DNA from: a virus | Lineage: Duplodnaviria; Heunggongvirae; Uroviricota; Caudoviricetes | IMG/VR virus record: IMGVR_UViG_3300026122_000001 | Length of the DNA: 64,000 nt | Direction: 5' to 3' (one strand) | Shown here: positions 4,928 to 22,819 of the stretch, in pieces | Layout: every line of letters starts with the position of its first letter | Position numbering within the stretch: position 1 is the stretch's first letter | Program-made: the position numbers and the translations under genes | Notes under the pieces: model-generated | The model's input: only the letters and a program-made list of their open reading frames with translations | Databases searched by the model: none | What the model was told of the DNA's origin: nothing

Positions 4928-7900
4928 TTATTCCTTATCGATAACGTACAAGCTTCCCGACTCTGGTGGCTCGATGACGGCAGTGGCCTCCAGTGTGGCG
5001 AACAGGGTATTTGTTGCATCCGCTTCTTTCGTTTGTGGCCAAACACGATTGAGCCATGTGAGACCATTGCTGGCGGACCTAGCAAACACCATCGAGCGAG
5101 TAGCGGCTTGCGTGGGCTCCACAGTATTATCGGCCGATTCCACGGAGGCAATGTTGATCGCCGGGGTCTGTGTCAATTGTAGGTCGTTGTCCGCGACTCT
5201 CAGATGAGTAGTGAAATCATCACCGTTGTAGATGATACTGAGGGAGCCCAAATCATCCAGCGTGAGGTTGCTAAGTGTGTCCTCAACAATGGAGTCCCAA
5301 GCACGGCTTTGCCAGACCAACGTGGAGGTGGCGTCACGATTGTACACACTGGTTGCCAACGACAACGCTTGACCAAAGGCAGCCGTGGAACTCAAGGCGT
5401 GCAAGGATATCCGCACCTCCTCTGGACTGCTCGCCAATGTTACGGTGGTAGCTGCCTGGCGACTTCGTACCAAATTAGCACTGACTGAGTCGGTCAGGCT
5501 CAACACTGAGGTAGCCGGTCGCTGCAATGAATATCCGAGCCCGATTGTATCCGTCATGCTCAATGTATGCGGTATACTCCGGCCCCAGATTGTTTCTTGA
5601 TTGGCCAAATCAGAAAGCGTCATGCTTGTATACATGCTCTTTCGGTATACAATCAAAACATCCGAAGTTGTGGTGGGCTCGATAATGCTGGCCGCTGCTC
5701 GGCCCCAGACGCCCACGAAAGTCGGGGTGTCTGAAAGTATCAGCGTGGTGGCTGCATTTCTGACCACATCCACGGGAGCTTCGTCTGTGAGTGTGATGGT
5801 AGAACTCAAAGTCTGGTTGATGAAATGCTCGTGGGAAGTATCGCTTGACAGGGTCATGCTTGATTCTGGCAACTGACTGAGGGTGCTATTGAGATCACGG
5901 GCATAACTCAACTCCAGCGTATTGGCGAGTGACTGACTGAATACCGGCTGCACTGAACCAACGCTGTTGAGTGAGATTGTTGAGGACGCTGCCCGACTCC
6001 TGAACATTGCTGGTGTAGCTTCGTCGGTGCTACTTAATGTTGATGCCAATGCAGTTTTGTTCAGGCTGTAACCCAGTCCTAATAGATGTGTGAGGTCATT
6101 GGCGCTGGTGGCCGCCCGTGGTCGGACAACAGTATTGTCCGTTGCCTCAGTGAGGCTCAATGTCCCATCGGCCGGTGGTCCAAGAACGAATCCGGCCACA
6201 AACTCAAAGCTGAGGTCCAGGTTGTGTACGATTATTTCCACAAAGTTGGAGTCTTCGGCACCCGTATCGGTGAGTGATAGCGTGGCAGCCAAATCAAGCT
6301 GCGAGACCACATTACGATCGCCGACATCAGACATCGACAGACTATCCTGGCCAGCTAGCGATACAACAATCGTCCGGTCCCCATTGCTGGACAGCAACGA
6401 GAAGGTATTGGATGCCGACCTTGGCTTGTCGGTAATCTTGTCCGAGGTATCTGATACACTGATGAGCGAACTGCTTGCCAGCCCGACTACTGTGGTCCTG
6501 TTGCCCAGGTCAGTCAAGTCAAGTGCCGAGACAGCAGACCTACCGAGATATGCAAACTTGTTGCTGGTATCCGTGAGTGCAAGGTCGGACTCGAACCACC
6601 GCTGCCGAACGGTGATCTCGCCTGTGGAGGCGGTGGTGAGTGCCATGTTAGTTGTGGCCAATTCCAAGGACACGAGGCCTTCACCAACAGCATCGGACAT
6701 TGTCAATGTTGTGCTGGCTGCCCTTGGCCGGACGCTATTCTGAGCCGCAGCGTCAATCAGCACAAGCGTATCGGCTGCATCTTGGCGGGGCACAAAGACT
6801 GCACTAGCGGCATCATCAAGGCTGAGCGTGCCAGCTAGGGTGCGGGCCAAGGTAGTAGCCTGTGTGGCCGAAGTCGTCAACTCGAAGGTGTCTGCCGCAG
6901 CCCGTGGTGCAACATGACTGTAGACCAAGGCTTGCTCTGGGTCTAGGCTGCCAAGCAATTGACGAACACGGCTGTAACCTGTGGAGGTTGCAATTGCCAA
7001 ACCCCTGGGGGCTGCCCAACCATATCCAGCCGCAACTTGGGTATGCGTGTGCGGGGCTGATACCTTGACGCTATGCACACCCATGATGACGTCATTGGCT
7101 GGGTTATCAACTGTCGCAATCATGTAGATAGAATCATTTGCCGAACTGTAGGCGAGCCAACCGAAGGAACCTGCTGGGATCGAAATCTCTGTAGCAACGA
7201 ATGCGCCCACACCTGTTGTTGGGGCCCAGAATGCGCGGGTGTAACCAGTGGCTTCCGAGGTGTAGGACCAATACAGATTCGTGGTGGTTTCATCATAGTG
7301 CAACCAAATCTGGCTGTACAATAGATAGTCCGGGAGGCTTCCAATTTGGATTGTTTCGAGTTGCGTATCCAGATCGAATTCGATAAGTTTGCCTGGGCTG
7401 CTGACCGCCGAGTACCACATCTTCCTTGATGCAACATGCCCGGTTATCGTACTGAGCCACCCGTGCGGTGAGAAGTAGGTCTGTGGATCGGAACCGGTTA
7501 CATCGACTTTGAAACCACGTTGTGATGGCGGCCAAACTCCCAGGCCAGTAGCAGTGTTGTCAATGACATACATGTACCCAGTCTGGGTATCATAGAACGA
7601 GAATCCTTCGCGTTGAAGATTTGTCAGCGTCTCAAAGTTGGCACCATTCAAGTCACTGACCATTTCTAGCATATGCAGCCACGAGCCAAAATAGATTTGG
7701 TCATCATAGATACGCAAGTCATTCGTGTCCGTACTTGTCGGGAAGGTACCCACGGGGTACGGAAGATCGCTAAGTAAGAAAGCCGTTTCCGGTGCAGTAA
7801 GGTCAGCACGGAATTTAGTCACCTTGGTACGCAGGCGATCACCGGCAGGAGCCGATTCATCCCAGTATTGTTCACCAGTGTAAATTCGGCCATCACCTTC

Positions 7901-10900
7901 TACATGGATATCAAGGTCATACAAGACATATTGTTCGAGGTCCAACAGGTGTGAGTCTGACAAGTCGCGAGTCGCAAGTTGGGTGGCGCTGTCTGTGATA
8001 TCCAGGTCGGTGGCGGCCGAGATTGGAATCGACAACGTGATATCAACCTGCTGACTCATCGAGACAGCCGTTATTCCGTCACGATGCAGCCCAGTGTAGC
8101 CACGTCCGAGATCGTAAAGATCGATCGAACTGATAGGTGTTCGGTTGAAGACAGCTTCCAGAATCAAGCTGTCCGAGAGCGTCAGTGTATGGCTGTCTTC
8201 GCGTAGCCTGACTGCAACGACAGCAAGTTCGTGTGTGAGTTCCAAAGTGGCGGATGTCGTTGGACGTGTGATCCAATCTTGGTGGCCTAATGCAATCCCT
8301 GTATATATTGAGTCGTGATCGATACGCAAGATTTCTGACGTGGGGGCAACATCAGTGGTATGGATACGTCGTATTTCGCGACCAATCACATCGGCCGGGG
8401 TGTAATAGATGTACCCGTCTTCACGGTTGTAAACCATATCCAGGGCGTAAGTTGCAATGAATGCGACCTGGGTGACATTGCTACCATCAAGGTCAGCAGA
8501 CTTGATGTCCCGCTCTGTCATGTCTGACCAGTATAGCTTCTCGTTGTACTGGTCAATGGTAATGGCGATTGGTCCCGCAGGATCAGTGGAAGTCTGGACG
8601 ATATTTTCTAAGTTGGACCCAGTGAGGTCACAACGCTTGATGTATCCAGACCCGTTGTCGACGATATACAGTTTGTTACCATTGACTTCCAATCCACGCA
8701 CATGCGTTAGGGCCGCACCGGCCACGATCTGCTGGCGATTTGATCCATTGTAGTCGACCCGCCAGATGCCACGATCGGCTGAGTCTTCGTCATGCACGTA
8801 CACGAAAATGTGGTTGTTGGCATCATCAACTGCAACTGCATGGGCAACCGGGAAATTGGTAGCGGCGGTTGTCACGCCCGATCCGTCCAGGTTGGCCAGC
8901 TTGACCGCACCGGCTGTGGCGTGTGTCTCGGCCCAGAAAATCTTACCATCGACCAACGAGATGGTGGCATCTCCGGGCGTGGCTGGTACGCCAGACAAGA
9001 ATTGGTCACGTATGAACTCACCGTCCAATGTCATCACACGACAGCGGTTGTTTTGATCGTCCATCATATAGATGGCGAACCGGTCACCTTCTGTATGACC
9101 CATGTCCACGCCGTGTGTCAATGCTAGGCTGTGGCTGACCGATGGGGTGAATGTTCGTTGGGCGAGGTCAGACAGGCTAAGCGAATCGGTTAGGGTGCGA
9201 CTAGAGACGGTGACTTCTTGCAGTCCCTGCGAGAGGTTCATGGTGGAATCAGTGCTACGGGGCCAGACAGCATCGTGAGCCAGTGTGTCCGTGGTGGCAA
9301 GTGTACTGAATGGATTCTGGGAGGTGAATGCTGTTCGGTCCAAATCGTGGGTGAGGCTGACAGTGGAGAACGGGAACGTGACGAAAGTTTTGATAGCTGC
9401 ATCGTCTGGTTCCAGCGTGTTTTCAGCACTGCGGGCAGCAACATGGTTCATGCTAGCAACTTCGCTGAGTGTGAGACCCTGCACGACATCCCGGGTCTCC
9501 CAGGTCACGGCTCGGACAGCCATGTCTGACATGACCAAAGTTGTGACACCATCTTGACCCAATGTTTTGTTGACATCCAGGCTGTCGGACAGCGATAGCG
9601 ACAGCGGGGTGCGTGCGTGCAGCGAGTACAACGCATCGGCTGACTGGCTCAGAGACATGTCGCTAACGGCACCTCTGGGACGAATGAGGTACGAGCCAAC
9701 ATCATCATTGAGCGCGACGGAACGGAAGAAGGATTGTGTGCCATCACCTGCTGGGGATGTGTTTCGGATGATCTGGACAGCGTTGAGTGGGTTGGTGGTG
9801 TCAAGCGAGTACACAGATTGGTAACCAGCGATATACAGGATGTCAGTTTCGTTGTCATATTCCAGTCCCAAGATACCCTCGGTACCACCCTCGCCATACA
9901 CGATGGCCCTATGGTACAGGTTGTATGGGGCCGTTTTGTTGACACGCCAAATGCTGTTGTCAGTCGACGCACCAAAGTACACATAGTCGTTGTTGTTATC
10001 CAACGCGATGGCATCAAAGTGATCCAGGACCGACATCCCCTCAACCTTGATCCAATCCTGGCCGCCATTACCCACCAACAAGTTGTGTGGCATACTATAC
10101 GATTCGGTATGCCCATAGCAATAGAATAGGCCGCTTGTCTGGTCGTACCGCAAGCAGTATCCAAACACATCATAGTAGCTGTCTTCGACCAGTAGGATAT
10201 GATCGCCACCGTCAGACATTCTGACACTGAACATCGTCGCATCGCCGCTGCCCTGTGCAACGAAGTACAATCTACCAGTGGCGGGGTTGATATCGAATGC
10301 TTGTATACTGGCGATACTGTATTCCCCAGGCCATGAACCATCATTCAGATCGACCAGTCCCCGCACGTCCGAGCCGTCCATTGCCCAACTGTTAATAGTT
10401 TTTGGCCCCGAGCCTAGACCATAGACACGATTGCCAGCAGTATCGATACGTAGCTCGGAGGAAGCTTCAGAACCAAAGATGTATTTCATTCGGCCTTGCA
10501 GATTCATCCCATAGAAGCCATCGCTGGGCCCGTTAGCTCCACCCTGCGTACCCAGCCACAATGGACCAACACCAACTTGGATGTCATAATAGGCATAGTC
10601 AGATAGGAGGAGGACGTTGGATTCTGCGGAGACTGGCTCTGGGAAGTAGACGTTGCTTACCAGGTCCAGTTGGCTTTCAGCCGCGCGTGTCAAGGATGAG
10701 CCAATGGTACCAGTTGCATCCGACAGGGTCAGTGTATTGGCTGCTGTCTCAACACGATTGACAGTATAGACTGCGGAATCTGATGTGTCAATTGTGCTGG
10801 TACCTAACCTGGCCAATGTGTAGCCCAGATCGATGGACTGCGCCAGTAGGGTAAGTGTCGACTCGGCCAAACCAACGTGTACCCGAACAATTTCGTCCGA

Positions 10901-13900
10901 CAGGTCTATTGGGCTAACAAGATCACGGGCGTATGTCGGTGCTGGGTCAGCATATGTGCTGAGGTAAATTGTGGTGCTGATGGCTTCAACGGTGCTGGTT
11001 AGTTCGGTGGTAGAATCAGTCAACTCCAGCGTGGATGAAGCATCATGCGAAACTGTGGCGATACGGTCCGCTGCATCGCTTGGTGACAACGTCGAGGTCC
11101 CCAGCCGTGGGCTCTCCGTCTCTTCTGTCACCAAATGCGTGAGTGTGGCAGACAACAGCGATGTGGCAAACATATCGCTGACCAACCGCAAGTCTTGGCC
11201 CAAATCGATGGGTGTTTCCGCACCGGTGGTGACGACGAAATTGTAATCCAGTGCGTCAGCGATGCCGATCGTGGACAGAAGGTCCTTGTTGAGAATACTG
11301 TCAGTGAGAGCTATTTGCTGTGTCAGTGTCAGTGTGTCTTCAATTGCCCTGGTTCGGATACCGGACGGGAGAATGTCGATGGCCACGCTGCGGAGCGTGG
11401 TGGTATCAACGTCATGTATAACTGTGTCACCGGTACCGTTCAGATGAATCTTCCTGACGGTAGTCTCGTTGGAGGCTGCCTTACTGATAAAGTACACGAA
11501 GTTGTCATGCGGGTTGTAAGCTAGATCAAGAATCTCTTCGCCAGCACTCATCTCTTTGATAAGCACTGGTGTACCAGTGGCAACGTCAGCGTAATACAGC
11601 CGGTAAGGCGAGCTTGCTTCGGCCCAGACCAGATAGCCGTATTCATCAGCAAACTCGCTGAAGGCGACGGGCGACGGGGTATTCACAAAGGTAGCAAGGC
11701 TGCCACCGGCTGTTGTGCATTCGTAAATATCCGTACCGATCCAGTCGTTGATATAGAGCATGGAGGATGTGCTATCAACTGATATCCCGGCTGGCAGCCC
11801 AAGAGACAAGAACCCGACTGGTGTGATGTCAGCCTGGGCAGTACCGGCCAGATTGTTCTGGTATAGTTTATGCTGGGATGTACTGGTGTTGTAAACCACA
11901 TAGTACAGTTTCTCGTTGTCTGCATCGATCGTAAGACCAGCAAGGCGGCTCGTCCCTGTAGTCGGTAACCCTGATGCGATGGCGACAATGTTGGTGCCAT
12001 CAAGGTCAGCACGCATGACCTTGCCTTCCAATGCCTCAGTCCAATAAATCTTGTCATTCACTGGGTCAAGGACAGCATAGGTGGCAGACGTGATGCTGTA
12101 CTCGAATACCTGGTTGACACTGTTGCCATCCGCATCCATGCTGATGCATTCGTCGGCACCGCTGTCCAGAACGTAGATTTCTGCACGAACGGCGTCGACT
12201 TTCTCGGCGCTCGCTGACTGTGAGAGCACTATGTATGCTTCGTAGGCTTCCTCATAGGTTGGCTGTGGTAGCAATCCCAACGTCAGCGTATGCTCGATGC
12301 CATGGTTGAGTGTGGCCGTTCGGTCACCAGTATCTGATGGCGACAGCGTGCTGCTCAGTGCCCGCTCGATAATGTGCAGTACCTCGACGGCATGCGAGAT
12401 TGGTACTACAAACTCGCTGGTACCCGAGTGTATCTTGACAGTATTGTCTGCTTCAGCAGATTGCGTAAGGGTTGCGGACAGATCGCTCTCGCCAACCCAC
12501 TGTGTTGTTGGGATGACTTCAAGTGCATCGCTCGGGAAGAGGTAGCTGTTTGCAATTCCAAATCGAATCGGCAACACAGAAACTTCTTGCGAGAGATCGG
12601 CGATGGTGTGGTTCAGGTTACGGGTGGCCCAGAATGTATCCTGCTCTGGGATACTTTCCAGACTTAGCGTATCGCTTAGACCCTTGCTGACCACGATGTT
12701 TCTGTCCACCGTGCTGACCATCTCGGGTGCCGAGGCACTCAGTCTGTTTAACACGCTGGTCTCTGCCACTGTGTCAGTCAGTGCCATGTCCGAGAACGGG
12801 TCTTTGTTGAGATCAAAGACAGTATCGAGGGACCATGTCAAGCTAAGATCATCGACACCCGCCCTTGGCCTGACCATCACGCCAGAGAATACCTGTGAGA
12901 TGTCAGCGACAGTGTGGGAGACATCCTTGTTGAGCACAAAATTAGTCGACAGTTGTTGGCCACCAACAATCGTTGATCCGCTACCACGTACAAGATCAAT
13001 CACCCGACCCAATGTGTGCGAGGGCGTCAAAGTCCCGGCTAACCATTTACCAAGAATTGCAATCCGTCCCATTTGATCGGATAGTGCCAGCGAGGATTCC
13101 ATAGCCCTTGGCCGTACAGCAACCTGCGAGGTGGCCTGTGCGGGTTCCAGGGTGGTAGCAGCACTCCGCAACCATACACCGAGGAAGCTCGCGGCATCGC
13201 TATCAATGACGGTGCTTTCAAGGGCCCGATCAAAGATGCTGGTCTCGGCCGCTGTGCTACCAAGCACCAGAGTATGGCTGAGCGGTTTGCCTAACGTGGC
13301 AGTGTGGTCAACAACTTGTGTGGGCCCGATGGCATCAATGATCTGCTTTGCGAACTCCGAATCTTGGACTGCCGTTTGGTCGAGGTCCAATGAGTCTGCG
13401 AGGCTTTTGCTTAGTGTAGCAATGCGATCAGCCGTGTCGGATGGCTCAAGTGTAACAGACACAGACAACGGGCGTATGGCATTCTGGGTGGCCATATCCG
13501 TAAGCTCGGTCGTGGATGCCAATGACCGATCGAACACGGCCAGATATACGGCAGTTGTTGAGGCTTCGATTGTTGTGGAGGCGGCCCGCCCCATTTCAAT
13601 TTCACGATCTGAGGCCACAGACAGGTCTAACGAGCTACTGGCCGCCCTGAGGTATGCCCAGATTGTGTCGATGGTCGAGGTTAGTTCGAGTGTTGAACTT
13701 TCATCCTTTTGGACAATGATGGTTCTGTCAGCAACATCGGTTGGGTCAAACGTATCGGCAGAGGCTCGTGGGCGGACCAGCGGGTACACCAAGACATCAG
13801 AGAGGTCGAGCGTATCAGCATGCTGGCGTTGTAAGATGTAACCTACACCCACAGCCTGGGTGAGCGTTAATGGTTCTGTCAGGCTACGTGGTCGAACCAG

Positions 13901-16900
13901 CGGGTTCTCAATACCCTGAGCAGCTATGATGGTCGAGACAAGAGTTTTGCCCAGGGTGGCAATTCTGTCTACTGTATCGGTCAAACTCGGACTTGATATG
14001 CTGGTTCGAGGGAGGGTTGCCGTATAGGCCAGAATGTCGCCAACAACGATTGTGGTGGTCTCATACCGGTCATATATTGCCAAATATGTGGCCACCTGAG
14101 TCGGATCAATAGTATCAGAACTACTGCGTGGCCGACTCAGATAGCCAGTAAACTCATCCGTGAGGTTGATGCTGTTACTATAGGACTGCCCGTACACGCC
14201 ATTGAAGAACAGTGTGTCGTTCACCACCAGGGTGTCGGCAGAGCTACGTGGCCTGATAGCCATAAAGGTAGCTGTAGCTGTCGGGAGTAATTCGTTGTCA
14301 AGCTGGCGCTGTAGGCTATAAATAACATCTACAGAGTGTGTCCATGTTTCGGTACTGCCCACTGAAAGTGGTCGTGACACATTTTGGGCGGCGATACTAC
14401 CGGGGTCGAGGGTAGAAATTCCGACATGGCTAACAGCAACCAGACGTGATAGCCCGTCGGTTATCTCCAATGTGTTTTCACCACTCCGTGGACGCACCAT
14501 ATCCCGCGAGGCCGAGTCGGCCAAGCTGCTGAGCGTGTCTTCCATGACCCGGTCAAAGATTGCCAGGTACGTGGCTTCGAGTCCGAGGTCTATGGTTGTA
14601 GCAACCGTGCGTTGCCATACCGTGTCCTGGGTAGCAAGCTGTGATGGCAACCAGGTACTGGTGGCAGGTTGTTGTAACGTGACAGCCCTATCGGTAAGGT
14701 CATTCAAACCAGACAGGGTGTTGGCCGCATACCGATCAAATACTATCAGGCGTGTGATGGTGCTAGATGGCGTAAAGCTGGAGGCCAGTGCTTTACTCAC
14801 CATGATTGTCCTGGCCAGGGGGTCAGTGACTCCAATGGTATGTGTTTCGGTCCGGATGTAAATTGCCACACGGCTGGCAGCATCTGTGATTGACAGGGTG
14901 TCGGCAACACTGCGGTCAAAGACCGCCAAGTACAGGCCGGTGGTACTCAGCGATATGGTGTTTTCTGTCGACCGTACATATGACCCTAAGAAGGACGCAG
15001 CTTGGGTCGTGTCTATGCTGGTGGCCAACTGTTTGCTGAGCGTTGTTGTGCGATCGCCAACCACGAGCATATCCAGCGTGCTGGTAGCACTTCGTGGCCA
15101 CACTGTATCCTGAGTCGCTGTGCTGCCGATGACCAACGTCCCAGAAAGGTCTTTACTCACGACAATCAAGCGATCTGGTACGTCGGTAACCGTGATTTCA
15201 GATACAGCCGACAGCGGGCGGGTCATATTCTGTGTGGCTGTCTGAGTGAGCAGCATGGAATTGCTCGGCTGCTTTTGCAACGTAGCAATTCTAGTGGCCG
15301 TCATGGTAAGGGACAGTGTGTCTGCTACACCTCGTGGCCAGACAGTGTCTTGTGCTACTGTGTCTGTGGCCACGATGGAGTTGGCTGGCTGCTTTTGAAG
15401 CGTGGCAATTCTTGTGGCCAACTCGGAAATCGACAGATCGTTGTAGGGGTCCTTGGTCACAAAAACAGTGTCGCTTTCGCTGGCACTGGAGAGTTCCAGG
15501 GTGTTGGCTCCGGCTCGGTTCAGGATGCTCGTCTCGCTGGCCACGTCAGTGAGGGACATGGTGACATCAGGCTGGCGGTCAAAGATCGCCACACGAGCCA
15601 GACTGTCGGTAAGCTCGACCGAGTTATCGAGTGTTTTGCTGAGGGTTGCAATCCTGTCCCCCGCCTGTGACAGGTCGAGGTTATGGGTCACCCATCTGGG
15701 CCATTGCGAATCCTGTGTGGCCAGCGTGGTCAAGGTCAGCGTGTCAGCCAACGATTTGTTCAGGGTTGCTATACGGTCAACCGCCGATGTCAGGGACAAC
15801 GTGTCACTGAATGCCCGTGGGCGGATCATATTTTGAGTGGCGGTGCTACTAACGTCCAGCGTGGTTGTCGCATACCGCAACCACACCATCAATCGAGTTG
15901 CTGTGTCAGTTAGAACCACATTGTTAAAGAGGTCTTTGGCTACAGCAATGATGACATCAGGTAGCTGGCTCATATCCAGACTGGTAACACTGTTTCTGGG
16001 CCATACCGCATCCTGGCTTGCCACGATGTCCAGGGCCAGGGTGTTGAATGGCCCCTTGGCCAAAGTTGCAATTCGGCCACTAACATCGAACACTGACAGC
16101 GTGCTGACCGAAGCTCGCGGCCATACTGTGTCCTGGTCGGCAGTAGACAATATCGTGAGGGTACCAGCTTCGCTTTTGGATACTACGATCGAACGATCCA
16201 GCGAATGGTTGATACCAATGGTGACGCTAGCAGACCTGGGCCAGACTACATCCTGTTCAGGCACAGAACTCAAGACCAGTGTATGTTCCAGATTCTTCCC
16301 AAGGATGGCCAGTCGGTCACCCACGCTAATGGATTCCAAAGTATTGGCAGTGGCCCGGCTCCACACAGTAGTTTGAGACGAGGTTGCAGTCATGTCCAGC
16401 GTAGTGACTGGGTTGCGGACAAATATGGCCAGATACACCGATGTGCTGGACATGTCCATATCAGTCGTGGCCGCACGGTTGAAGTCACCAGTATACGCTA
16501 GTTCCTGTGAGACCACCAGCGTGCTCACCAATGTCTTGCCAACACTGATGTTGCAATGGTGCGAGTGTGTCAGTTCCAGATCGTGCGTAAGCAACCGTGG
16601 GAAGGTGGCAATGTAATCCACCTGATGCCCCAGTGTGTTTGATACCAAGCCTGTGGACAACAGCAACAAATTCAATACGACATTTCGGTGCAAAATGTCA
16701 TCGACTTCCAACGTGGAAACTGTCGGGCGATCAAACGTCATTTCCCGCTCGACGCTGGTGTCCAAGGACACCAAATCGTTGTCAAGCGGCCTGACAAAAA
16801 TGGCAACCCGTGATGTTTCCGCATCGGGGTAGAGTGTATTTTCCAGCAGCCGGACAAATACACTGTCCTGCACTGCCAGGTGATCCAACAGGATCGTGTC

Positions 16901-19615
16901 GCTCACATCCGGACTGAGTATATAGTTCGTATGCAACACATCTGACACGGTCAGGGTGCTGACAGATGCTCGGGGCCAAACTGTATCCTGGGCGACAGTG
17001 CTGGTGGTCTCAAGTGTACTGTCGGTATCTTTGTGTAACGTAGCAGTCAGATCGAGGAGTTGGGTAGTCTCGATGAGGTCGGAACCCTCGCGGGGTCGTA
17101 CCATATAACCTTCAACGGCATGGGTGATTAGCGAATCCGAACCAGCGGGCCGGAGTGCAGAAACGATAATCACTACTTGGGCGCTAGCGACAATATCGTT
17201 CTCTGCAAATCGCGGCCTACCAGTATCATGTATGACAGCATCGGTAAGGGCTAGACCCTGAATGGCTGGTCGGTCAAAGACCGCCAGGAAACTGGCCCCA
17301 TCTGTGACGGCAAGTGTGTCGGTAGAAAACAGCAGCCGGTCAACAATTTGTTCGACAGTTTGGGTTATTGTGAACAGATTGGACTGACTGTATCGGTCAA
17401 AGACGGCATCGAATGTGCAAACATCATGTATCGTTGACAGTGTATGTGACACCACCACGGTGTAAATGTCCGCCATCTCGGCGTCAATTTCAACACTAGC
17501 TGAAAGCCCATATCGTTTGTCCCGCACGATGGGTTCCTGTGGCGAGACAATCACACCACGCCATTCCCGGTTCTCCCAGTCAATGAATCCGATTTCCTTG
17601 CCCAAAGTTAGCAGACAGAAGTCTAGGAATTCTTGTGACTCGGCTTCGTTCAACCCATTGAATTGGAACCCCAGGTGGGCGATCTTAGGCCAAATCGGAT
17701 CAGCATACAAGATCAACGTCCCGCCACGACTTTCGCGGTTGACACGATGGAAAGAGAGTCTGTCGGTGTTGTCTAGCTCAGGCCCCCTCAGGTGTATCGA
17801 GGTCGTGGGATTGATGGCCGGGAAGAAGAAAGTGATGCCACTGGCAGTCTCGCTGATTGTCGGTTGGTTCCACTTGGGCGGGACAGGGGCGTTAGGGTCA
17901 GTGGAGGTACCAACAAATGGTGCAAACTCATTGAGAGTATTGTCTTTCAGAATCGAGTAGCCCAGCGTGCTGTAAAGCTGCAAACTGTTTTCTGTCAGGA
18001 TTGGATTCGCACGGAGAATGACACGGCCGGATGCATCTGATAGGCTCAGTGTGTTGGCGGCAAATTCACTGATGTCTATCGTAACTGACTGGCTAAAGTT
18101 CAGTTGTGAGATGGCCTCTTCCGAGGGTCCGTATATCACACCGGAAGTTATGGCTAGTGTACTCTCTGCACTTATTGGTGTGCCTGTTGTTTGCACATGC
18201 GCAACAGTTGCTGTGTGCGCGAATGAAACATACTGTGGGGCCAACACGGGTGTTGGGATGCTTGTGTAAGCTACAGCTTGGTCCAGTGTCCATGCGGGGC
18301 CATACAAGTAATCCCCGAGTTCTTCGTCCCAGTACCAAACATCTGGTCCGTAAAGATCAGAGGAACCAGCCAGCGACTTGATACTCGATCGACCAATTTG
18401 GGTCATGTCGAGATTGGTTGTTGCCAAGAGATCAATGTATTTACCAACATATCCTATGTCCGTCATGTCCAAGGATGATGTGGCGGTCGCAGTTCGTAAT
18501 GGCTGTAGAGCCCAACTGTCAAAGAACAGGAGACTCATGGCGCTGACATTGAAGGGCACCACAATGTGTGGCCCCTGTACCCAATTGGCCGTGTCTAGTT
18601 CGCTGACAGCAGTTGGAAAATACCAATTCGTCCGACCAGAATGGAGCACATGGAGAGTTGATTCTGCTTCGGGGTGATATGTCCTTGGGGTGTAGGCAAC
18701 CATCAACCAACTAAACTCATCATTGGTCGCATGGGCAAAAATCCAGTTATGCTTGCCCTCATCGGTCATGGCCAAAGTGTTTTCGGCCACAGCATAAATT
18801 ATGGCCGGCGTGTGTGCGGTTTGACTTAACGTGATGGGGCTGATAATTTCAGCCAGGTACCAATCAGCCTCGGCGGCATCATTGAGAGACACTGAGAGAT
18901 CAGAGGTCCCCGCACCATACTTGGCCAATGTGTAGTCAGCGGCATCATCCAGACTAAGCAACTCGTTGTCTACTGACTGGTAGGCACCACCCGGCAAGGC
19001 CTCATCACCCAATGATATACTGCTGGATGCGTCACCATAACGTGGCCCGACGGCGTTGGCGGCGTCGGTCAGGCCAAGCGTGTGGTCTACAATGAAACGA
19101 TCCAGAATACCACGGGTCTCTACAGACAACGATCCTGAGAGATCGCTTTCTGCCGACACAGAATACCAGTGGTGGTATATCAAATCTGAGAGGCTCAGAC
19201 TATTTTCGACCCATATCTGGAAAATAGGCTGGCGGGCGACGACAGTCATCGCGAGATCGTTTGAAGTATCTCGCTTCAAACTTCCGTAGGCGAGGCCGAC
19301 AGTTTGGGCCAGAGAAGCGCCCAAGTCGGTGGTGGGGATTTTGCTCAGTATGTCGGGTGCCACATAAAGCACTTCGACCGCCAGGCTGGTGACCCTAAGC
19401 GGACCAGTGGCGGCACCCAAGACATCAATGTGCTGGCTTGATGCTCGCAGGACTCCTGGAGCTACTTGACCCAGCACATCTATTCGCTGGCCAGATATGC
19501 GCAAAAGCCCTGGGTCGGTTTGACCCAGGACCATAATTGACTGCATACTGACATGGAGGTCAGATGGTATTTCCGCAAATACCATGACCGATTGTTTTGT
19601 CACCCGAATCGACAT
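4928..19615 (-). CDS. Giant 4895-aa virion fibre/adhesin: ~20-aa tandem repeats, four YWTD-like beta-propellers, one tail-hub-like domain
   Basis: Uninterrupted ORF translationally coupled (TAATG) to the upstream tail gene; motifs KIYWTEALEGKVMRADLDG and KLYWSDMTERDIKSADLDG; periodic R/K-xxx-[DST]-TL-x-L-[ST]-D units. Confidence 0.9.
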   Translation of the reverse strand: MSIRVTKQSVMVFAEIPSDLHVSMQSIMVLGQTDPGLLRISGQRIDVLGQVAPGVLRASSQHIDVLGAATGPLRVTSLAVEVLYVAPDILSKIPTTDLGASLAQTVGLAYGSLKRDTSNDLAMTVVARQPIFQIWVENSLSLSDLIYHHWYSVSAESDLSGSLSVETRGILDRFIVDHTLGLTDAANAVGPRYGDASSSISLGDEALPGGAYQSVDNELLSLDDAADYTLAKYGAGTSDLSVSLNDAAEADWYLAEIISPITLSQTAHTPAIIYAVAENTLAMTDEGKHNWIFAHATNDEFSWLMVAYTPRTYHPEAESTLHVLHSGRTNWYFPTAVSELDTANWVQGPHIVVPFNVSAMSLLFFDSWALQPLRTATATSSLDMTDIGYVGKYIDLLATTNLDMTQIGRSSIKSLAGSSDLYGPDVWYWDEELGDYLYGPAWTLDQAVAYTSIPTPVLAPQYVSFAHTATVAHVQTTGTPISAESTLAITSGVIYGPSEEAISQLNFSQSVTIDISEFAANTLSLSDASGRVILRANPILTENSLQLYSTLGYSILKDNTLNEFAPFVGTSTDPNAPVPPKWNQPTISETASGITFFFPAINPTTSIHLRGPELDNTDRLSFHRVNRESRGGTLILYADPIWPKIAHLGFQFNGLNEAESQEFLDFCLLTLGKEIGFIDWENREWRGVIVSPQEPIVRDKRYGLSASVEIDAEMADIYTVVVSHTLSTIHDVCTFDAVFDRYSQSNLFTITQTVEQIVDRLLFSTDTLAVTDGASFLAVFDRPAIQGLALTDAVIHDTGRPRFAENDIVASAQVVIIVSALRPAGSDSLITHAVEGYMVRPREGSDLIETTQLLDLTATLHKDTDSTLETTSTVAQDTVWPRASVSTLTVSDVLHTNYILSPDVSDTILLDHLAVQDSVFVRLLENTLYPDAETSRVAIFVRPLDNDLVSLDTSVEREMTFDRPTVSTLEVDDILHRNVVLNLLLLSTGLVSNTLGHQVDYIATFPRLLTHDLELTHSHHCNISVGKTLVSTLVVSQELAYTGDFNRAATTDMDMSSTSVYLAIFVRNPVTTLDMTATSSQTTVWSRATANTLESISVGDRLAILGKNLEHTLVLSSVPEQDVVWPRSASVTIGINHSLDRSIVVSKSEAGTLTILSTADQDTVWPRASVSTLSVFDVSGRIATLAKGPFNTLALDIVASQDAVWPRNSVTSLDMSQLPDVIIAVAKDLFNNVVLTDTATRLMVWLRYATTTLDVSSTATQNMIRPRAFSDTLSLTSAVDRIATLNKSLADTLTLTTLATQDSQWPRWVTHNLDLSQAGDRIATLSKTLDNSVELTDSLARVAIFDRQPDVTMSLTDVASETSILNRAGANTLELSSASESDTVFVTKDPYNDLSISELATRIATLQKQPANSIVATDTVAQDTVWPRGVADTLSLTMTATRIATLQKQPSNSMLLTQTATQNMTRPLSAVSEITVTDVPDRLIVVSKDLSGTLVIGSTATQDTVWPRSATSTLDMLVVGDRTTTLSKQLATSIDTTQAASFLGSYVRSTENTISLSTTGLYLAVFDRSVADTLSITDAASRVAIYIRTETHTIGVTDPLARTIMVSKALASSFTPSSTITRLIVFDRYAANTLSGLNDLTDRAVTLQQPATSTWLPSQLATQDTVWQRTVATTIDLGLEATYLAIFDRVMEDTLSSLADSASRDMVRPRSGENTLEITDGLSRLVAVSHVGISTLDPGSIAAQNVSRPLSVGSTETWTHSVDVIYSLQRQLDNELLPTATATFMAIRPRSSADTLVVNDTLFFNGVYGQSYSNSINLTDEFTGYLSRPRSSSDTIDPTQVATYLAIYDRYETTTIVVGDILAYTATLPRTSISSPSLTDTVDRIATLGKTLVSTIIAAQGIENPLVRPRSLTEPLTLTQAVGVGYILQRQHADTLDLSDVLVYPLVRPRASADTFDPTDVADRTIIVQKDESSTLELTSTIDTIWAYLRAASSSLDLSVASDREIEMGRAASTTIEASTTAVYLAVFDRSLASTTELTDMATQNAIRPLSVSVTLEPSDTADRIATLSKSLADSLDLDQTAVQDSEFAKQIIDAIGPTQVVDHTATLGKPLSHTLVLGSTAAETSIFDRALESTVIDSDAASFLGVWLRSAATTLEPAQATSQVAVRPRAMESSLALSDQMGRIAILGKWLAGTLTPSHTLGRVIDLVRGSGSTIVGGQQLSTNFVLNKDVSHTVADISQVFSGVMVRPRAGVDDLSLTWSLDTVFDLNKDPFSDMALTDTVAETSVLNRLSASAPEMVSTVDRNIVVSKGLSDTLSLESIPEQDTFWATRNLNHTIADLSQEVSVLPIRFGIANSYLFPSDALEVIPTTQWVGESDLSATLTQSAEADNTVKIHSGTSEFVVPISHAVEVLHIIERALSSTLSPSDTGDRTATLNHGIEHTLTLGLLPQPTYEEAYEAYIVLSQSASAEKVDAVRAEIYVLDSGADECISMDADGNSVNQVFEYSITSATYAVLDPVNDKIYWTEALEGKVMRADLDGTNIVAIASGLPTTGTSRLAGLTIDADNEKLYYVVYNTSTSQHKLYQNNLAGTAQADITPVGFLSLGLPAGISVDSTSSMLYINDWIGTDIYECTTAGGSLATFVNTPSPVAFSEFADEYGYLVWAEASSPYRLYYADVATGTPVLIKEMSAGEEILDLAYNPHDNFVYFISKAASNETTVRKIHLNGTGDTVIHDVDTTTLRSVAIDILPSGIRTRAIEDTLTLTQQIALTDSILNKDLLSTIGIADALDYNFVVTTGAETPIDLGQDLRLVSDMFATSLLSATLTHLVTEETESPRLGTSTLSPSDAADRIATVSHDASSTLELTDSTTELTSTVEAISTTIYLSTYADPAPTYARDLVSPIDLSDEIVRVHVGLAESTLTLLAQSIDLGYTLARLGTSTIDTSDSAVYTVNRVETAANTLTLSDATGTIGSSLTRAAESQLDLVSNVYFPEPVSAESNVLLLSDYAYYDIQVGVGPLWLGTQGGANGPSDGFYGMNLQGRMKYIFGSEASSELRIDTAGNRVYGLGSGPKTINSWAMDGSDVRGLVDLNDGSWPGEYSIASIQAFDINPATGRLYFVAQGSGDATMFSVRMSDGGDHILLVEDSYYDVFGYCLRYDQTSGLFYCYGHTESYSMPHNLLVGNGGQDWIKVEGMSVLDHFDAIALDNNNDYVYFGASTDNSIWRVNKTAPYNLYHRAIVYGEGGTEGILGLEYDNETDILYIAGYQSVYSLDTTNPLNAVQIIRNTSPAGDGTQSFFRSVALNDDVGSYLIRPRGAVSDMSLSQSADALYSLHARTPLSLSLSDSLDVNKTLGQDGVTTLVMSDMAVRAVTWETRDVVQGLTLSEVASMNHVAARSAENTLEPDDAAIKTFVTFPFSTVSLTHDLDRTAFTSQNPFSTLATTDTLAHDAVWPRSTDSTMNLSQGLQEVTVSSRTLTDSLSLSDLAQRTFTPSVSHSLALTHGVDMGHTEGDRFAIYMMDDQNNRCRVMTLDGEFIRDQFLSGVPATPGDATISLVDGKIFWAETHATAGAVKLANLDGSGVTTAATNFPVAHAVAVDDANNHIFVYVHDEDSADRGIWRVDYNGSNRQQIVAGAALTHVRGLEVNGNKLYIVDNGSGYIKRCDLTGSNLENIVQTSTDPAGPIAITIDQYNEKLYWSDMTERDIKSADLDGSNVTQVAFIATYALDMVYNREDGYIYYTPADVIGREIRRIHTTDVAPTSEILRIDHDSIYTGIALGHQDWITRPTTSATLELTHELAVVAVRLREDSHTLTLSDSLILEAVFNRTPISSIDLYDLGRGYTGLHRDGITAVSMSQQVDITLSIPISAATDLDITDSATQLATRDLSDSHLLDLEQYVLYDLDIHVEGDGRIYTGEQYWDESAPAGDRLRTKVTKFRADLTAPETAFLLSDLPYPVGTFPTSTDTNDLRIYDDQIYFGSWLHMLEMVSDLNGANFETLTNLQREGFSFYDTQTGYMYVIDNTATGLGVWPPSQRGFKVDVTGSDPQTYFSPHGWLSTITGHVASRKMWYSAVSSPGKLIEFDLDTQLETIQIGSLPDYLLYSQIWLHYDETTTNLYWSYTSEATGYTRAFWAPTTGVGAFVATEISIPAGSFGWLAYSSANDSIYMIATVDNPANDVIMGVHSVKVSAPHTHTQVAAGYGWAAPRGLAIATSTGYSRVRQLLGSLDPEQALVYSHVAPRAAADTFELTTSATQATTLARTLAGTLSLDDAASAVFVPRQDAADTLVLIDAAAQNSVRPRAASTTLTMSDAVGEGLVSLELATTNMALTTASTGEITVRQRWFESDLALTDTSNKFAYLGRSAVSALDLTDLGNRTTVVGLASSSLISVSDTSDKITDKPRSASNTFSLLSSNGDRTIVVSLAGQDSLSMSDVGDRNVVSQLDLAATLSLTDTGAEDSNFVEIIVHNLDLSFEFVAGFVLGPPADGTLSLTEATDNTVVRPRAATSANDLTHLLGLGYSLNKTALASTLSSTDEATPAMFRSRAASSTISLNSVGSVQPVFSQSLANTLELSYARDLNSTLSQLPESSMTLSSDTSHEHFINQTLSSTITLTDEAPVDVVRNAATTLILSDTPTFVGVWGRAAASIIEPTTTSDVLIVYRKSMYTSMTLSDLANQETIWGRSIPHTLSMTDTIGLGYSLQRPATSVLSLTDSVSANLVRSRQAATTVTLASSPEEVRISLHALSSTAAFGQALSLATSVYNRDATSTLVWQSRAWDSIVEDTLSNLTLDDLGSLSIIYNGDDFTTHLRVADNDLQLTQTPAINIASVESADNTVEPTQAATRSMVFARSASNGLTWLNRVWPQTKEADATNTLFATLEATAVIEPPESGSLYVIDKE

Positions 19616-20667
19616 TAAACCGCCTTAATACCGAATGTTGCGTTATTGATGCCCACTGGAGTCCATGCCACACCTGTGTCTGGGTCTACTGGAGAAACCC
19701 CAAAGTTGGCATGATAGTCCTGATGAGCAGAGTATTTGTCCCCAGAGTCGATGTCCTCGACAGTGCCGTTAGAGTCCACTCTGAAATACAAATCCCAACC
19801 GTGCGCCGCTAATGACTTCGTCATCGCTGTAACTTGAAGTCCGACAACCTCGAAGCTTGGATTCAAAGCTGCAAGGTCAAACATGTCTACGTTACCGGAT
19901 ACATCTGTCTGTATGTATCCAGTGTCTCCGTCTGTTGGCTGTTCATTCAGGAGAGCATAATGTGAGCCAGCCTCGCTGGCATCCCACTGACTTCCTGGTT
20001 GGTCGCCGTCTAGCACCAGCCCTGCCACTCGGCAGGACCCCAGAAAATCATCATGGCCAGTGCCGTCATCATATCCATCACAGATGTAGATGTCATCAAT
20101 CATGGATGCCTTGTTTGTATAAAATTGCACCTTGCCTACGGCCCCAGTATTTTGGTAATCAGTATCGATACCGGATGCCGAGAAAACAACACCCTCGTTG
20201 GCACGAATCTCGATCGATCCTGATATGGGATGGACAACGAGTTTGACTTCAATGTAGGTCCAATCATAGTCTGTTATTGCTGCACCGCTGGTGGTACCAA
20301 TGAGCGTGGTATACATGTACACTTGTAATTCACCGGCAGCAGTTCGCCGTAACCTGCATTGTAACGAATCTGTTGCAGTGCCATCCAACCGCAAGATGTA
20401 TGGGGTGTCAGGCAGTCCGGTAGCTCCTCGCCACCCAAACCCAACAACCACTGTATTGGTCTCTGGTATGAGCTTGTTCAATTCTAGCCAATAGTTGTTG
20501 ACACCCTGTAGTGCGGCACCATATCCGTTACGTCCGGCCACTATACTGATGGTATCGTTGTCTATTCTTACGCTGTCCCATTTTTGTGTCAGCATGCCGT
20601 GCAGATCGGCACCATAGGTACCGATCGGCCCAAAGTTTTCAAAGCCTTCTATCCAGCGTAGTGCCAT
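19615..20667 (-). CDS. Tail/baseplate-associated protein, paralogue 3 (lectin/ConA-like beta-sandwich inferred)
   Basis: MALRWIEGFENFG...NNATFGIKAV; colinear with the two upstream paralogues; TGATG overlap. Confidence 0.75.
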   Translation of the reverse strand: MALRWIEGFENFGPIGTYGADLHGMLTQKWDSVRIDNDTISIVAGRNGYGAALQGVNNYWLELNKLIPETNTVVVGFGWRGATGLPDTPYILRLDGTATDSLQCRLRRTAAGELQVYMYTTLIGTTSGAAITDYDWTYIEVKLVVHPISGSIEIRANEGVVFSASGIDTDYQNTGAVGKVQFYTNKASMIDDIYICDGYDDGTGHDDFLGSCRVAGLVLDGDQPGSQWDASEAGSHYALLNEQPTDGDTGYIQTDVSGNVDMFDLAALNPSFEVVGLQVTAMTKSLAAHGWDLYFRVDSNGTVEDIDSGDKYSAHQDYHANFGVSPVDPDTGVAWTPVGINNATFGIKAV

Positions 20668-21704
20668 CAGCCTACCTTCACACCAGATTGAATTGCATTA
20701 ACGCCTGCCACAGCCCAGTCGGCCGCTGTGTTGGGGTCTTGCATGTACACATCGAGATAGTAAATTCCGTCGTTGCCGGTAACCCGCCTGGTGTCCGCAT
20801 CTTGTTCAGTGGCACCTGACTTGAGCACAGGAATCATATCCAACGCTGAAGCGGCTGTCACCATCGCTACCGTTGAGACTTGTATGGCCACGATACCCGA
20901 GTCGATGTTGACCAGATTGCCAAAATCGTACAAATCTTTGTCGCCAGTGAGTGCGCCTTCTACGTAGGTTGTGTCATCCGAGTATTCGTTGTCTACCATC
21001 GCATAGTTGTCGCCACCAGTGCTCGGTGTCCAGTCTGCTTGAGCCGTATCGGCACTCGGGCGTAGAGTCTCTACTTTCAGTTCGCCCATAAAGTCCTGGC
21101 CAGCGGTATCATCCGCAAGGTAGATGTCTCCAAGCAGGCTGGAGTAGAAACCGGCACGGAATACGATCGTATCGCATTCGCCGCTACCATTGTTGTCGGT
21201 ATCCACGCCTGAGGCTGACAGTACCGTGTCGCCATTGACACGCACCTCGTAACTGCCAGCGTTATCACAGAAATACATCACTTCAATTCGATGCCAGGAA
21301 TTGCCACGCAATACTCTGGGCGCTGATTGTTCCAGCAGGACAGTGTTCCTATAGAATGCCAGACTGCCGTCATTCCAGGCTGCTAGCCGCATTTGCGTTA
21401 TACCACCTCTGTATATGTAGATGATGTAGTCCCCACCCGTGATGTTTCCGGGCACGAAGTAATTGAATCCGAAATACAGGGTTGAGATCGGTGTGAAGTA
21501 TTTCTTCAACCAATGATCTCGCCCGCTGTCGTTCCAGATAAGCGAGTTGCCCATCCCACCACGACCATCTGCAATCTTGGTATTCGATGATAGCGTGGTA
21601 CATTCAACGGCGTCCCAATGGCCAAGCAGTCGATCTTCCAACGTCTGGGCGTTGGTACCAACAGCCCCGTAGTTTTCAAAACCTTCAAGGAAAAAGATTG
21701 ACAT
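20667..21704 (-). CDS. Tail/baseplate-associated protein, paralogue 2
   Basis: MSIFFLEGFENYG...NAIQSGVKVG; SD AAGGAG upstream. Confidence 0.75.
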   Translation of the reverse strand: MSIFFLEGFENYGAVGTNAQTLEDRLLGHWDAVECTTLSSNTKIADGRGGMGNSLIWNDSGRDHWLKKYFTPISTLYFGFNYFVPGNITGGDYIIYIYRGGITQMRLAAWNDGSLAFYRNTVLLEQSAPRVLRGNSWHRIEVMYFCDNAGSYEVRVNGDTVLSASGVDTDNNGSGECDTIVFRAGFYSSLLGDIYLADDTAGQDFMGELKVETLRPSADTAQADWTPSTGGDNYAMVDNEYSDDTTYVEGALTGDKDLYDFGNLVNIDSGIVAIQVSTVAMVTAASALDMIPVLKSGATEQDADTRRVTGNDGIYYLDVYMQDPNTAADWAVAGVNAIQSGVKVG

Positions 21705-21714
21705 TGGCTACTCC

Positions 21715-22764
21715 TTACCCGATCTTGACGCCAAACTGCGCCGCATTCAAACCAGCCTCAGTCCAAGCCGAGGCCGTGTCTGGGTCCTGTGACATCAATC
21801 GATGTCTGGTGGTATAATCTGTCTCGGTTATCGTTTCTATGCTGCCACTGCTGTTGGTCGTACCAGATTTGCAGGTCACAATCAATGACTCGGACCCAAC
21901 AATATCCAGTGCAGTTTGTGTCCAAACATCAATGACCAAGATGCTTGTTGGTGTCACAGGCAGATCATCGTAGTCATACAAGTCTTCGTTGCTTGCGATG
22001 CTGTCGTAGACATAGTCGGTCTCGTTGCCCACAGTATCATCTATGGTCTGGTAATGGTTGCCCACAGGTTCTGCGGACCAGTCCAGTTGTGCGGTGTCCC
22101 CGTCAGGGAGTAAAGCAACAACCGTGTAGTTGTGGCCCAGCCAGTCATTGAACTCAGGGCCGGAATCATCACAGATGTAGATGTCATCCAGTTGCTGACC
22201 GTTGTAGCTCGCCCTGAACGAATGGGCACTCACTTCACCCTCGCCTGTCCAGTCGGTATCCACACCGGTTGCCGATAATACAGTTATCCCGTTGACTCGA
22301 ACCTCATAGCTGCCAGACGCACCAACGGTGTATTTTATCTCCACAAAATTCCATTGATTCGCACGGAGGGTATTTATGGCTGCCGCTTGGTGTACCGTTC
22401 CGTTGAGCCAGACCTGGAGGCCGTTTGCGGCACCAAGACCAAGCTTCAGTTGTTCACCGCCAAGATCATCCTTGGCCATATACATGTGGTAGCTGCCGTA
22501 GGCTTGTGACCCACCTTGTAGGTATACAGCAAATCCGATAATCCAAGTTTGGGCTTGAACACCACAATGATGGAGAAGCACGTTAGAGTTACTGTCCGGC
22601 ATATAGAGACAAGCGCCTGTACCACCACGTCCTGGACCGATGATATAAGCATCTGACCCCGAAGTCGGGGACGGATCAGACCAGATTTGTTCCATTGCAG
22701 TCTGCAAGGTGGCTCCCGTGAGCCCACCGTAGGTTTCAAAACCTTCAAGCAAATACAGAGCCAT
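21715..22764 (-). CDS. Tail/baseplate-associated protein, paralogue 1
   Basis: Start moved to MALYLLEGFETYG (22764) by alignment with the paralogues; ends NAAQFGVKIG. Confidence 0.75.
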   Translation of the reverse strand: MALYLLEGFETYGGLTGATLQTAMEQIWSDPSPTSGSDAYIIGPGRGGTGACLYMPDSNSNVLLHHCGVQAQTWIIGFAVYLQGGSQAYGSYHMYMAKDDLGGEQLKLGLGAANGLQVWLNGTVHQAAAINTLRANQWNFVEIKYTVGASGSYEVRVNGITVLSATGVDTDWTGEGEVSAHSFRASYNGQQLDDIYICDDSGPEFNDWLGHNYTVVALLPDGDTAQLDWSAEPVGNHYQTIDDTVGNETDYVYDSIASNEDLYDYDDLPVTPTSILVIDVWTQTALDIVGSESLIVTCKSGTTNSSGSIETITETDYTTRHRLMSQDPDTASAWTEAGLNAAQFGVKIG

Positions 22765-22780
22765 GGCATCATCTCTGGAG

Positions 22781-22819
22781 AACAAAAGAACCGGACGACA
22801 GCATCATGCTGCCGTCCGG
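22781..22819 (-). terminator. Rho-independent terminator
   Basis: Stem CCGGACG-a-CAGCA/TGCTG-c-CGTCCGG followed on the minus strand by TTCTTTTGTT. Confidence 0.75.

Follow-up and report, generated by a model that had tools for sequence, protein, structure and literature searches.

The subject of this report is a giant gene in a 64,000-nucleotide stretch of viral DNA (Duplodnaviria; Heunggongvirae; Uroviricota; Caudoviricetes; IMG/VR record IMGVR_UViG_3300026122_000001), which we call the window. The gene, P0001, lies on the minus strand and encodes 4,895 amino acids, among which a strictly periodic 20-residue repeat forms a long candidate rod that most probably serves as the shaft of a phage tail fibre. 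Analysis of the translation with autocorrelation profiles and with a hidden Markov model (HMM) of the repeat unit gave the following layout, in window coordinates and in the order of the protein:

4928..19615, minus strand: whole gene P0001, a giant modular fibre-like protein of 4,895 residues (open reading frame list and translation)
17408..17935, minus strand: non-repeat island directly upstream of the rod, residues 561-736 (68% identity to the related protein P0003)
12578..17407, minus strand: main rod, residues 737-2346, about 80 unit lengths of the 20-residue repeat (local lag-20 profile, unit-HMM anchors, their spacing, and tiling)
12578-16609, minus strand: strictly phased core of the main rod, residues 1003-2346, 67 units (tiling)
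12236..12577, minus strand: degenerate end of the main rod, residues 2347-2460, with two recognisable units at residues 2414 and 2434 (unit-HMM matches)
11366..12235, minus strand: globular insert 1, residues ~2461-2750, a predicted YWTD / LRP1-like beta-propeller (Pfam, BLASTP)
10718..11359, minus strand: rod segment 2, residues 2753-2966, about 7 recognisable units (unit-HMM matches)
9152..9685, minus strand: rod segment 3, residues 3311-3488 (unit-HMM matches, lag-20 profile)
7961..8215, minus strand: rod segment 4, residues 3801-3885 (unit-HMM matches)
5033..6907, minus strand: rod segment 5, residues 4237-4861, about 28 units in looser phase (unit-HMM matches, lag-20 profile)

Autocorrelation of the whole protein, scored with BLOSUM62, was flat apart from peaks at lags of 20, 40, 60 and 80 residues. 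A sliding profile placed the lag-20 signal at residues ~750-2400 and then at ~2750-2970, 3250-3500, 3750-3900 and 4200-4800, the rod being broken up by four non-repeat, globular blocks that are free of the signal. Over residues 737-2460 the lag-20 score reached z = 19.6 against 300 shuffles, and identity was 15.6% at lag 20 and 18.7% at lag 40 compared with 6.4% at lag 17. The unit HMM, which was built from the P0001 sequence and used for anchors and their spacing, matched the protein 115 times, with neighbouring anchors 20 residues apart in 70 cases, 40 in 12 and 21 in six. Between the anchors at residues 1003 and 2307 the phase drifts by four residues only, and residues 1003-2346 tile into 67 units, of which 63 have 20 residues and four have 21; in three of these four the extra residue apparently sits at position 12, within what we describe below as the acid-capped strand (tiling, alignment A1). 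With in-phase filling, about 112 units are recognisable, corresponding to 46% of P0001, and we regard the reality of the 20-residue repeat as practically certain. A first-pass annotation, made by reading the letters of this DNA, had described more than 60 consecutive units of 20, occasionally 21, residues between 16.4 and 12.5 kb, and both the number and the span match the phased core at 16609-12578. The broader range that it assigned to the element, 11370-17450, does cover the rod, but also takes in the first propeller (~11366-12235) and omits the four shorter rod segments downstream. Its remark that the repeat is poorly conserved at the DNA level was borne out as well, with no 60- or 120-nt array in the DNA according to Tandem Repeats Finder and 60-73% identity between the best dispersed copies.

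The anatomy of the unit was deduced from a profile pooled from 2,332 units of 187 proteins. Its odd positions read phi1, phi3 (F/L/Y), R5, a7 (A/L/V), D9, L11, L13, D15, a17 and R19, where phi denotes a large and a a small hydrophobic residue. Hydrophobic residues account for 96% of position 11, 88% of position 13 and 77-83% of positions 3, 7 and 17; charged residues account for 84% of position 5 (71% Arg, 10% Lys), 61% of position 9 and 65% of position 15; and the even positions from 2 to 18 are Ser or Thr in 33-77% of units. No position holds more than 12% Gly or 11% Pro. At R5, D9, T10, L11, L13, S/T14, D15, A/V17 and R19 this profile agrees with the consensus that had been read by eye. The two halves of the unit resemble each other, residue-class identity giving z = 4.9 at lag 10 and 6.7 at lag 30, and their charges are opposite in 44 of 52 pairs ten residues apart and the same in 91 of 97 pairs twenty residues apart. 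The unit is an internal pseudo-dimer, two 10-residue halves of one pattern with the charges inverted. Its sequence suggests an acid-capped strand (D-T-L-x-L-S-D) and a base-capped strand (R-x-phi-x-phi-x-R), with links of three residues, the middle one a small hydrophobic. Unit length is conserved throughout the family, with 456 anchor spacings of 20 and 151 of 40.

Along the rod the autocorrelation of Ser and Thr switches sign with the lag, being positive when it is even and negative when it is odd, and this two-residue alternation argues for beta-strand structure. A helical alternative, in which 40 residues would form a helix-loop-helix as in designed helical repeat proteins, was raised by a comparison of a 160-column family profile with the PDB, which returned the designed helical repeat DHR14 (5h7c) at E 6.6e-9, plus related designs. 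The hydrophobic positions 3, 7 and 11, four residues apart, and the 40-residue indels of the rod in the orthologue described below would also suit such a unit. We rejected the DHR14 match as an artefact that stems from a common 20-residue period and a similar content of Ala, Leu, Thr and Asp; it amounts to 19.5 bits per 142-residue domain, and its E-value is low because two identical copies were summed. The rod is moreover 25% Ser plus Thr, poor in Glu, Lys and Gln, and carries Ser/Thr at every even position with a period of two, and DSSP assigned strands and no helix to either of the two AlphaFold2 models considered below, although helical repeats are usually easy to model. A helical fold is therefore scarcely credible to us.

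Relatives of the protein were sought in two ways. A word-indexed search limited to giant proteins returned the protein itself, the 5,090-residue P0003 and the 3,604-residue P0004, all on contigs of 107-178 kb. P0001 and P0003 are collinear end to end in a global alignment, with 44% identity in the rod, and within the rod (residues 737-2346) they differ in length by four 40-residue insertions in P0003, one of which was split 25+15 by the aligner, and by four 1-residue slips. This collinearity implies that the units are individually orthologous, and the array is old rather than the product of a recent expansion. The earlier suggestion of an old, structurally constrained repeat thus holds up, unit length being kept in 187 proteins as well as between orthologues that are 44% identical. 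An exhaustive HMMER census of 1.84 billion representative proteins with a 40-column double-unit profile found 173 proteins at E <= 0.001, of which 43 reached E <= 1e-10; they are mostly 400-1,900 residues long, with 4-19 matched 40-column stretches. None of the relatives checked bears a functional name, and where they are named it is as 'hypothetical protein'. The nearest ESM Atlas clusters are 92-100% viral, and feature searches there gave viral hypothetical clusters only; as far as recorded, the repeat is restricted to viruses.

In the smaller relatives the repeat flanks other domains on either side or separates them, namely LamG lectin domains, a GDSL esterase, a right-handed beta-helix and an Ig domain. 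One of them, P0037, has capsid genes on one side of its gene and those for Phage_base_V, sheath, tube and baseplate proteins on the other, and another, P0008, is encoded two genes upstream of the terminase, as judged from PHROGs matches of its neighbours. A divergent subfamily (P0026, P0039, P0061 and P0063) has units of 18-19 residues, in which the base-capped half alone is shortened and variable while the acid-capped half, S-D/N/H-T-L-S-L-T-D/Q/H-x-A, is kept. Judged by these arrangements, the repeat acts as a portable module, a rod or spacer, in phage structural proteins whose other domains bind or cut sugars.

Collections of known families contain no counterpart. No model in Pfam, PHROGs or NCBIfam covers the repeat, whether in P0001 or in the relatives, and in Pfam and NCBIfam there was no match even at E <= 1; profile searches of all PDB chains (A1, A5) gave no fibre or solenoid protein; and searches of the literature for 20-residue phage fibre repeats or YWTD propellers in phages yielded nothing relevant. 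The first-pass annotation had not recognised the repeat as a named family, and these searches, in which sequence and profile comparisons gave no real match, support that view; the family is very probably undescribed. A tblastn search of 50,697 GenBank phage records with the rod, P0037 and P0008 found no clear member. Its sole match was a faint one between P0008 and AZF89921.1 (MK170447.1, L004:7473-8873), a hypothetical protein from a cultured archaeal virus, Methanosarcina virus MetMV (E 4e-5, 27% identity). This protein contains a looser repeat, phi-x-L-x-L-x-D, of ~20 residues that lacks the Arg caps. The unit model gives it a score below zero, and it may be a very distant cousin of the family.

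A super-period of 40 residues had also been noted on first reading. In P0001, identity at lags 40, 80 and 120 is 0.21, 0.19 and 0.185, as opposed to 0.163-0.164 at lags 20, 60 and 100, and in P0003 the corresponding values are 0.29, 0.27 and 0.24 as opposed to 0.19-0.20. Units of the Lys type are seldom adjacent (P about 0.02 in P0001 and 0.002 in P0003). The alternation is nevertheless interrupted in many places, and in the paralogous giant P0004 identity does not differ between the multiples of 40 and lags 20, 60 and 100. The super-period is thus real, but imperfect and lineage-specific.

The genes around P0001 place it in a tail module. Upstream on the same strand lie genes for the large terminase, portal, major head protein and tape measure protein, recognised with PHROGs, and the start of the giant gene overlaps the preceding stop codon. 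The immediate neighbours in the window are:

23734..27726, minus strand: tape measure protein, 1,330 residues (PHROGs tape-measure families, E down to 5.8e-34)
19615..22785, minus strand: three tandem paralogues of 350, 345 and 356 residues, all matching phrog_2448, a family of unknown function (E 1e-27 to 1e-31)
3..4925, minus strand: next gene, at least 1,641 residues and open at the window edge, with the same repeat from residue 648 (unit-HMM scan)

The three phrog_2448 paralogues, which match no Pfam family, sit between the tape measure gene and the giant gene, where distal-tail or baseplate proteins would be expected. The next gene begins with propeller-like sequence and continues with at least 46 units in one phase, without a slip up to residue 1568; its 40 unit-HMM anchors are spaced by 20 residues in 26 cases and by 40 in nine. 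A related metagenome contig of 177.6 kb (L005:1-30815) encodes, in this order, a 5,067-residue orthologue, the 3,604-residue P0004 and LamG proteins of 775 and 2,408 residues, and the synteny of the four giant genes is preserved there.

Within P0001, the first block that interrupts the rod matches the Pfam families Ldl_recept_b (E 7.4e-10) and DUF5050 (E 1.1e-9); block 3 is its paralogue (BLASTP E 3e-13), and block 2 shows weak BLASTP similarity to both. Block 4 (residues ~3890-4230; window 6990-7900, minus strand) has no BLASTP similarity to blocks 1-3 and no Pfam match. On this basis at least two of the four inserts, and probably a third, are predicted to be YWTD-type propellers. The island of residues 561-736 ahead of the rod is the best-conserved part of the protein, its 68% identity to P0003 standing against 44% in the rod and 36% in residues 1-560, and we consider it a candidate attachment or nucleation domain. 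Two further features were seen upstream of it. Residues 1-88 (window 19352-19615, minus strand) hold five copies of a separate repeat of ~17 residues, x-V-S/T-x-Q-x-I/V-x-V-L-G-x-x-x-P-G-x-L, which was read in the translation and gives a lag-17 signal; it matches no family and could be the tail-attachment end of P0001. Residues 100-560 (window 17936-19318, minus strand), ahead of the strict rod, contain a degenerate core motif, x-L-x-L-x-D, at irregular spacings of ~20-45 residues, and the strict 20-mer may be a compacted form of this looser, older motif.

We propose that ~112 undescribed 20-residue beta repeats encoded in this region build the shaft of a giant tail fibre by which the phage attaches to its host; for this reading as a whole, fold included, we put the probability at roughly 0.45. 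The part of it that concerns function, a fibre shaft in a virion protein, we hold to be likely on the strength of sequence and gene order. The gene lies in the tail module after the tape measure, and carbohydrate-binding or carbohydrate-active modules are present, as YWTD/DUF5050 propellers in P0001 and as LamG, GDSL, Beta_helix, Ig_3 and BNR_2 domains in the relatives; the lectin, esterase and beta-helix domains fit with a fibre shaft that spaces binding domains. The first-pass annotation had likewise envisaged a very long shaft, beta-helical or of beta-spiral type, that holds adhesion domains far from the capsid. The context and the domains of the relatives favour the shaft, but the marks of a triple beta-spiral are missing, and it is the tail tip, not the capsid, from which the fibre would extend.

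For the fold, the sequence rules require that acid-capped and base-capped half-units lie next to each other, and a trimer, a two-sheet solenoid and an antiparallel meander all satisfy them. In the arrangement that we favour, half-units would pack side by side, so that Leu and Phe line up as an unbroken core whose edges are zipped by Arg-Asp pairs, giving a stiff rod with a fixed rise per unit. Three chains would be needed for this, intertwined as in a triple beta-helix, each 10-residue half-unit forming one face of the trimer and neighbouring strands on a face coming from half-units of opposite type. A rise of ~0.96 nm per unit would make the main rod ~77 nm long and all units together roughly 110 nm, and the rod segments would act as rigid spacers that set the distances of the four globular inserts and of the C-terminus from the tail tip. 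The tail itself usually measures 0.15 nm per residue of tape measure protein, and a tape measure of 1,330 residues should correspond to a tail of about 200 nm.

Structure prediction gave no confident answer. AlphaFold2 monomer models of 240 residues (12 units, 34 aligned rows) and 160 residues (8 units, 63 rows) had predicted local distance difference test scores (pLDDT) of 54 on average and of 44, respectively; the ESM Atlas model of the relative P0008 had a pLDDT of 0.56; and the chain pLDDT was 54 when three copies of residues 1083-1322 were modelled with ESMFold2 (alignment A3), a run made without controls whose interaction score (ipSAE) of 0.00 counts neither way on the trimer. All four of these monomer-type predictions are thus of low confidence. 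Phage fibres are as a rule trimers, and obligate-trimer fibre shafts typically give low-confidence monomer predictions while single-chain solenoids usually model well. It is because of this general experience, together with the repeated failure of the monomer predictors, that we lean towards a trimer-dependent fold, tentatively and at slightly less than even odds.

The charge pattern could also be accommodated in a single chain, as a two-sheet beta-solenoid or beta-arcade like that of CsgA or the ice-nucleation repeat, with one coil per unit and an unchanged function as fibre shaft or spacer. Such a coil would rise by 0.48 nm and the main rod would measure ~38 nm; acid-capped and base-capped strands would stack in separate sheets, R5 pairing with D9 and D15 with R19 across the arcs, and positions 1, 3, 7, 11, 13 and 17 filling the core. 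The six hydrophobic odd positions and the small hydrophobic residues midway between the charge pairs suit a flattened coil, strict unit length is typical of solenoids, and the repeat adjoins domains that are usually monomeric (LamG, GDSL, Ig, YWTD). However, like charges would stack on like every 0.48 nm, shortening of the base-capped half alone to units of 18-19 residues, as in the divergent subfamily, is awkward for a closed coil, and neither AlphaFold2 at 34 and 63 rows nor the ESM models returned a confident coil, although in general experience even orphan solenoids usually model well. We judge the solenoid unlikely, while taking it seriously.

A further arrangement is suggested by the 12-unit AlphaFold2 model itself, which over its better half has two strands per unit, with short links of 2-4 residues between alternate strands. 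Links of this kind would suit an antiparallel beta-meander ribbon in which each half-unit is one strand of a hairpin ladder, again at ~0.96 nm per unit, with the Leu/Phe face and its Arg-Asp rows buried by pairing or tripling of ribbons and with Ser/Thr on the other face. The palindromic charges would then set Arg opposite Asp on adjacent antiparallel strands. Yet positions 7 and 17, where the hairpin tips would lie, are hydrophobic in 79-83% of units and nearly devoid of Gly, Asn and Asp, which is atypical for tight loops, and no confident model supports the ribbon, so that we find it improbable.

Several observations weigh against the trimeric fibre shaft that we prefer. No model reached usable confidence, and strand pairing, handedness and oligomeric state are all inferred. 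Mean-field coevolution analysis of 874 three-unit and 494 five-unit windows gave no contacts; the strongest couplings join equivalent positions of separate units and are as strong at a distance of four units as at one, a pattern that indicates differences between subfamilies rather than contacts. Foldseek found nothing in the PDB at E <= 0.001 for the low-confidence 12-unit model, and the weak rows that it listed, at template-modelling (TM) scores of 0.1-0.3 that we treat as meaningless, are all single-chain solenoids (GlmU/LpxA, pectate lyases, tailspikes and FapC), a tendency on the side of the solenoid. No trimerisation module, such as the intramolecular chaperone Peptidase_S74, was found in P0001 or in those relatives that were scanned; the conserved Gly, Asn or Pro at which known triple beta-helices and beta-spirals turn is missing; and the GenBank phages searched hold no clear member. 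Finally, neither Pfam nor PHROGs recognised a Dit, Tal or baseplate domain in P0001. This would suit a protein that is not part of the virion at all but is secreted or displayed on the cell surface, perhaps altering the surface of the infected cell, and whose gene happens to close the late operon. The gene nevertheless follows the tape measure and the three paralogues, stands on their strand and has a start codon that overlaps the stop before it, its order is conserved in the related phage, and the relative P0037 is embedded among baseplate genes; a non-virion role appears very improbable.

The fibrous folds of viral attachment proteins are few, and each new one has proved useful for the study of host recognition and as a component of protein materials. 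The regularity seen here is unusual, with 67 units in phase and a constant unit length across 187 proteins, and a fragment of 20 units is a well-defined target for structure determination, while the charge-inverted half-unit and the rule of 40-residue indels offer testable design principles. An uncultured phage lineage with genomes of roughly 150-180 kb appears to spend about a fifth of its genome on four consecutive giant, rod-based fibre genes. What appears new is the repeat family itself, very probably not described before, with its phase statistics, half-unit inversion, indel rule and census; periodic shafts of attachment fibres are known, and the presumed function is ordinary.

Among known systems, the triple beta-spiral of the adenovirus fibre and reovirus sigma-1 is built from a repeat of ~15-16 residues, in which a Gly/Pro turn is conserved and a loop varies. 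The P0001 rod is like these shafts in being a short tandem strand-turn-strand repeat in a viral attachment fibre of adjustable length. It differs in its 20-residue unit of two charge-inverted halves, and we rejected membership of the class on the period and on the missing conserved Gly/Pro turn. The closest single-chain analogues, as far as the comparison of repeats goes, are the curli proteins CsgA and FapC and the 16-residue ice-nucleation repeats, which resemble it as very long arrays of strand-arc-strand units of ~16-23 residues, kept in strict phase and with Thr/Ser ladders on one face; a super-period of several units is found in the ice-nucleation protein as well. These repeats are non-viral, however, and Pfam shows no sequence relation between them and the P0001 repeat, for which there is no confident solenoid model; single-chain beta-solenoid families (CsgA/FapC, ice-nucleation, RTX beta-roll and pentapeptide) had no Pfam or NCBIfam match at E <= 1, and a lag-5 signal was absent. 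A bolder proposal, which we consider doubtful, is that the repeat forms a new fibrous fold, neither triple beta-spiral nor known triple beta-helix nor standard solenoid, in which alternating acid- and base-capped 10-residue strands, contributed by adjacent half-units or chains, interlock through continuous Arg-Asp ladders around a Leu/Phe core. It would be a ruler that changes only in 40-residue steps and could carry twelve or more sugar-binding propellers up to at least 100 nm from the tail tip.

No sequence or profile similarity was found to a solved triple beta-helix (T4 gp5C, gp12 and gp34; the endosialidase stalk). The closest functional analogue would still be T4 gp34, by analogy of architecture and with the oligomeric state of P0001 inferred. 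That protein forms a trimeric triple beta-helix 2 nm in width with wider domains at intervals, a design thereby established for fibres, and its beta-helix has no clear sequence motif and turns rich in Gly, Ser and Asn (PMC5537660). Unlike gp34, the P0001 rod has an exact 20-residue period over 67 units, no turn glycine, conserved Arg/Asp caps and predicted YWTD propellers as nodes. What P0001 appears to share with gp34, and with gp12, is a long, thin beta rod with globular nodes in a host-recognition fibre, Leu/Ile-rich strands around a hydrophobic core, and the role of a spacer.

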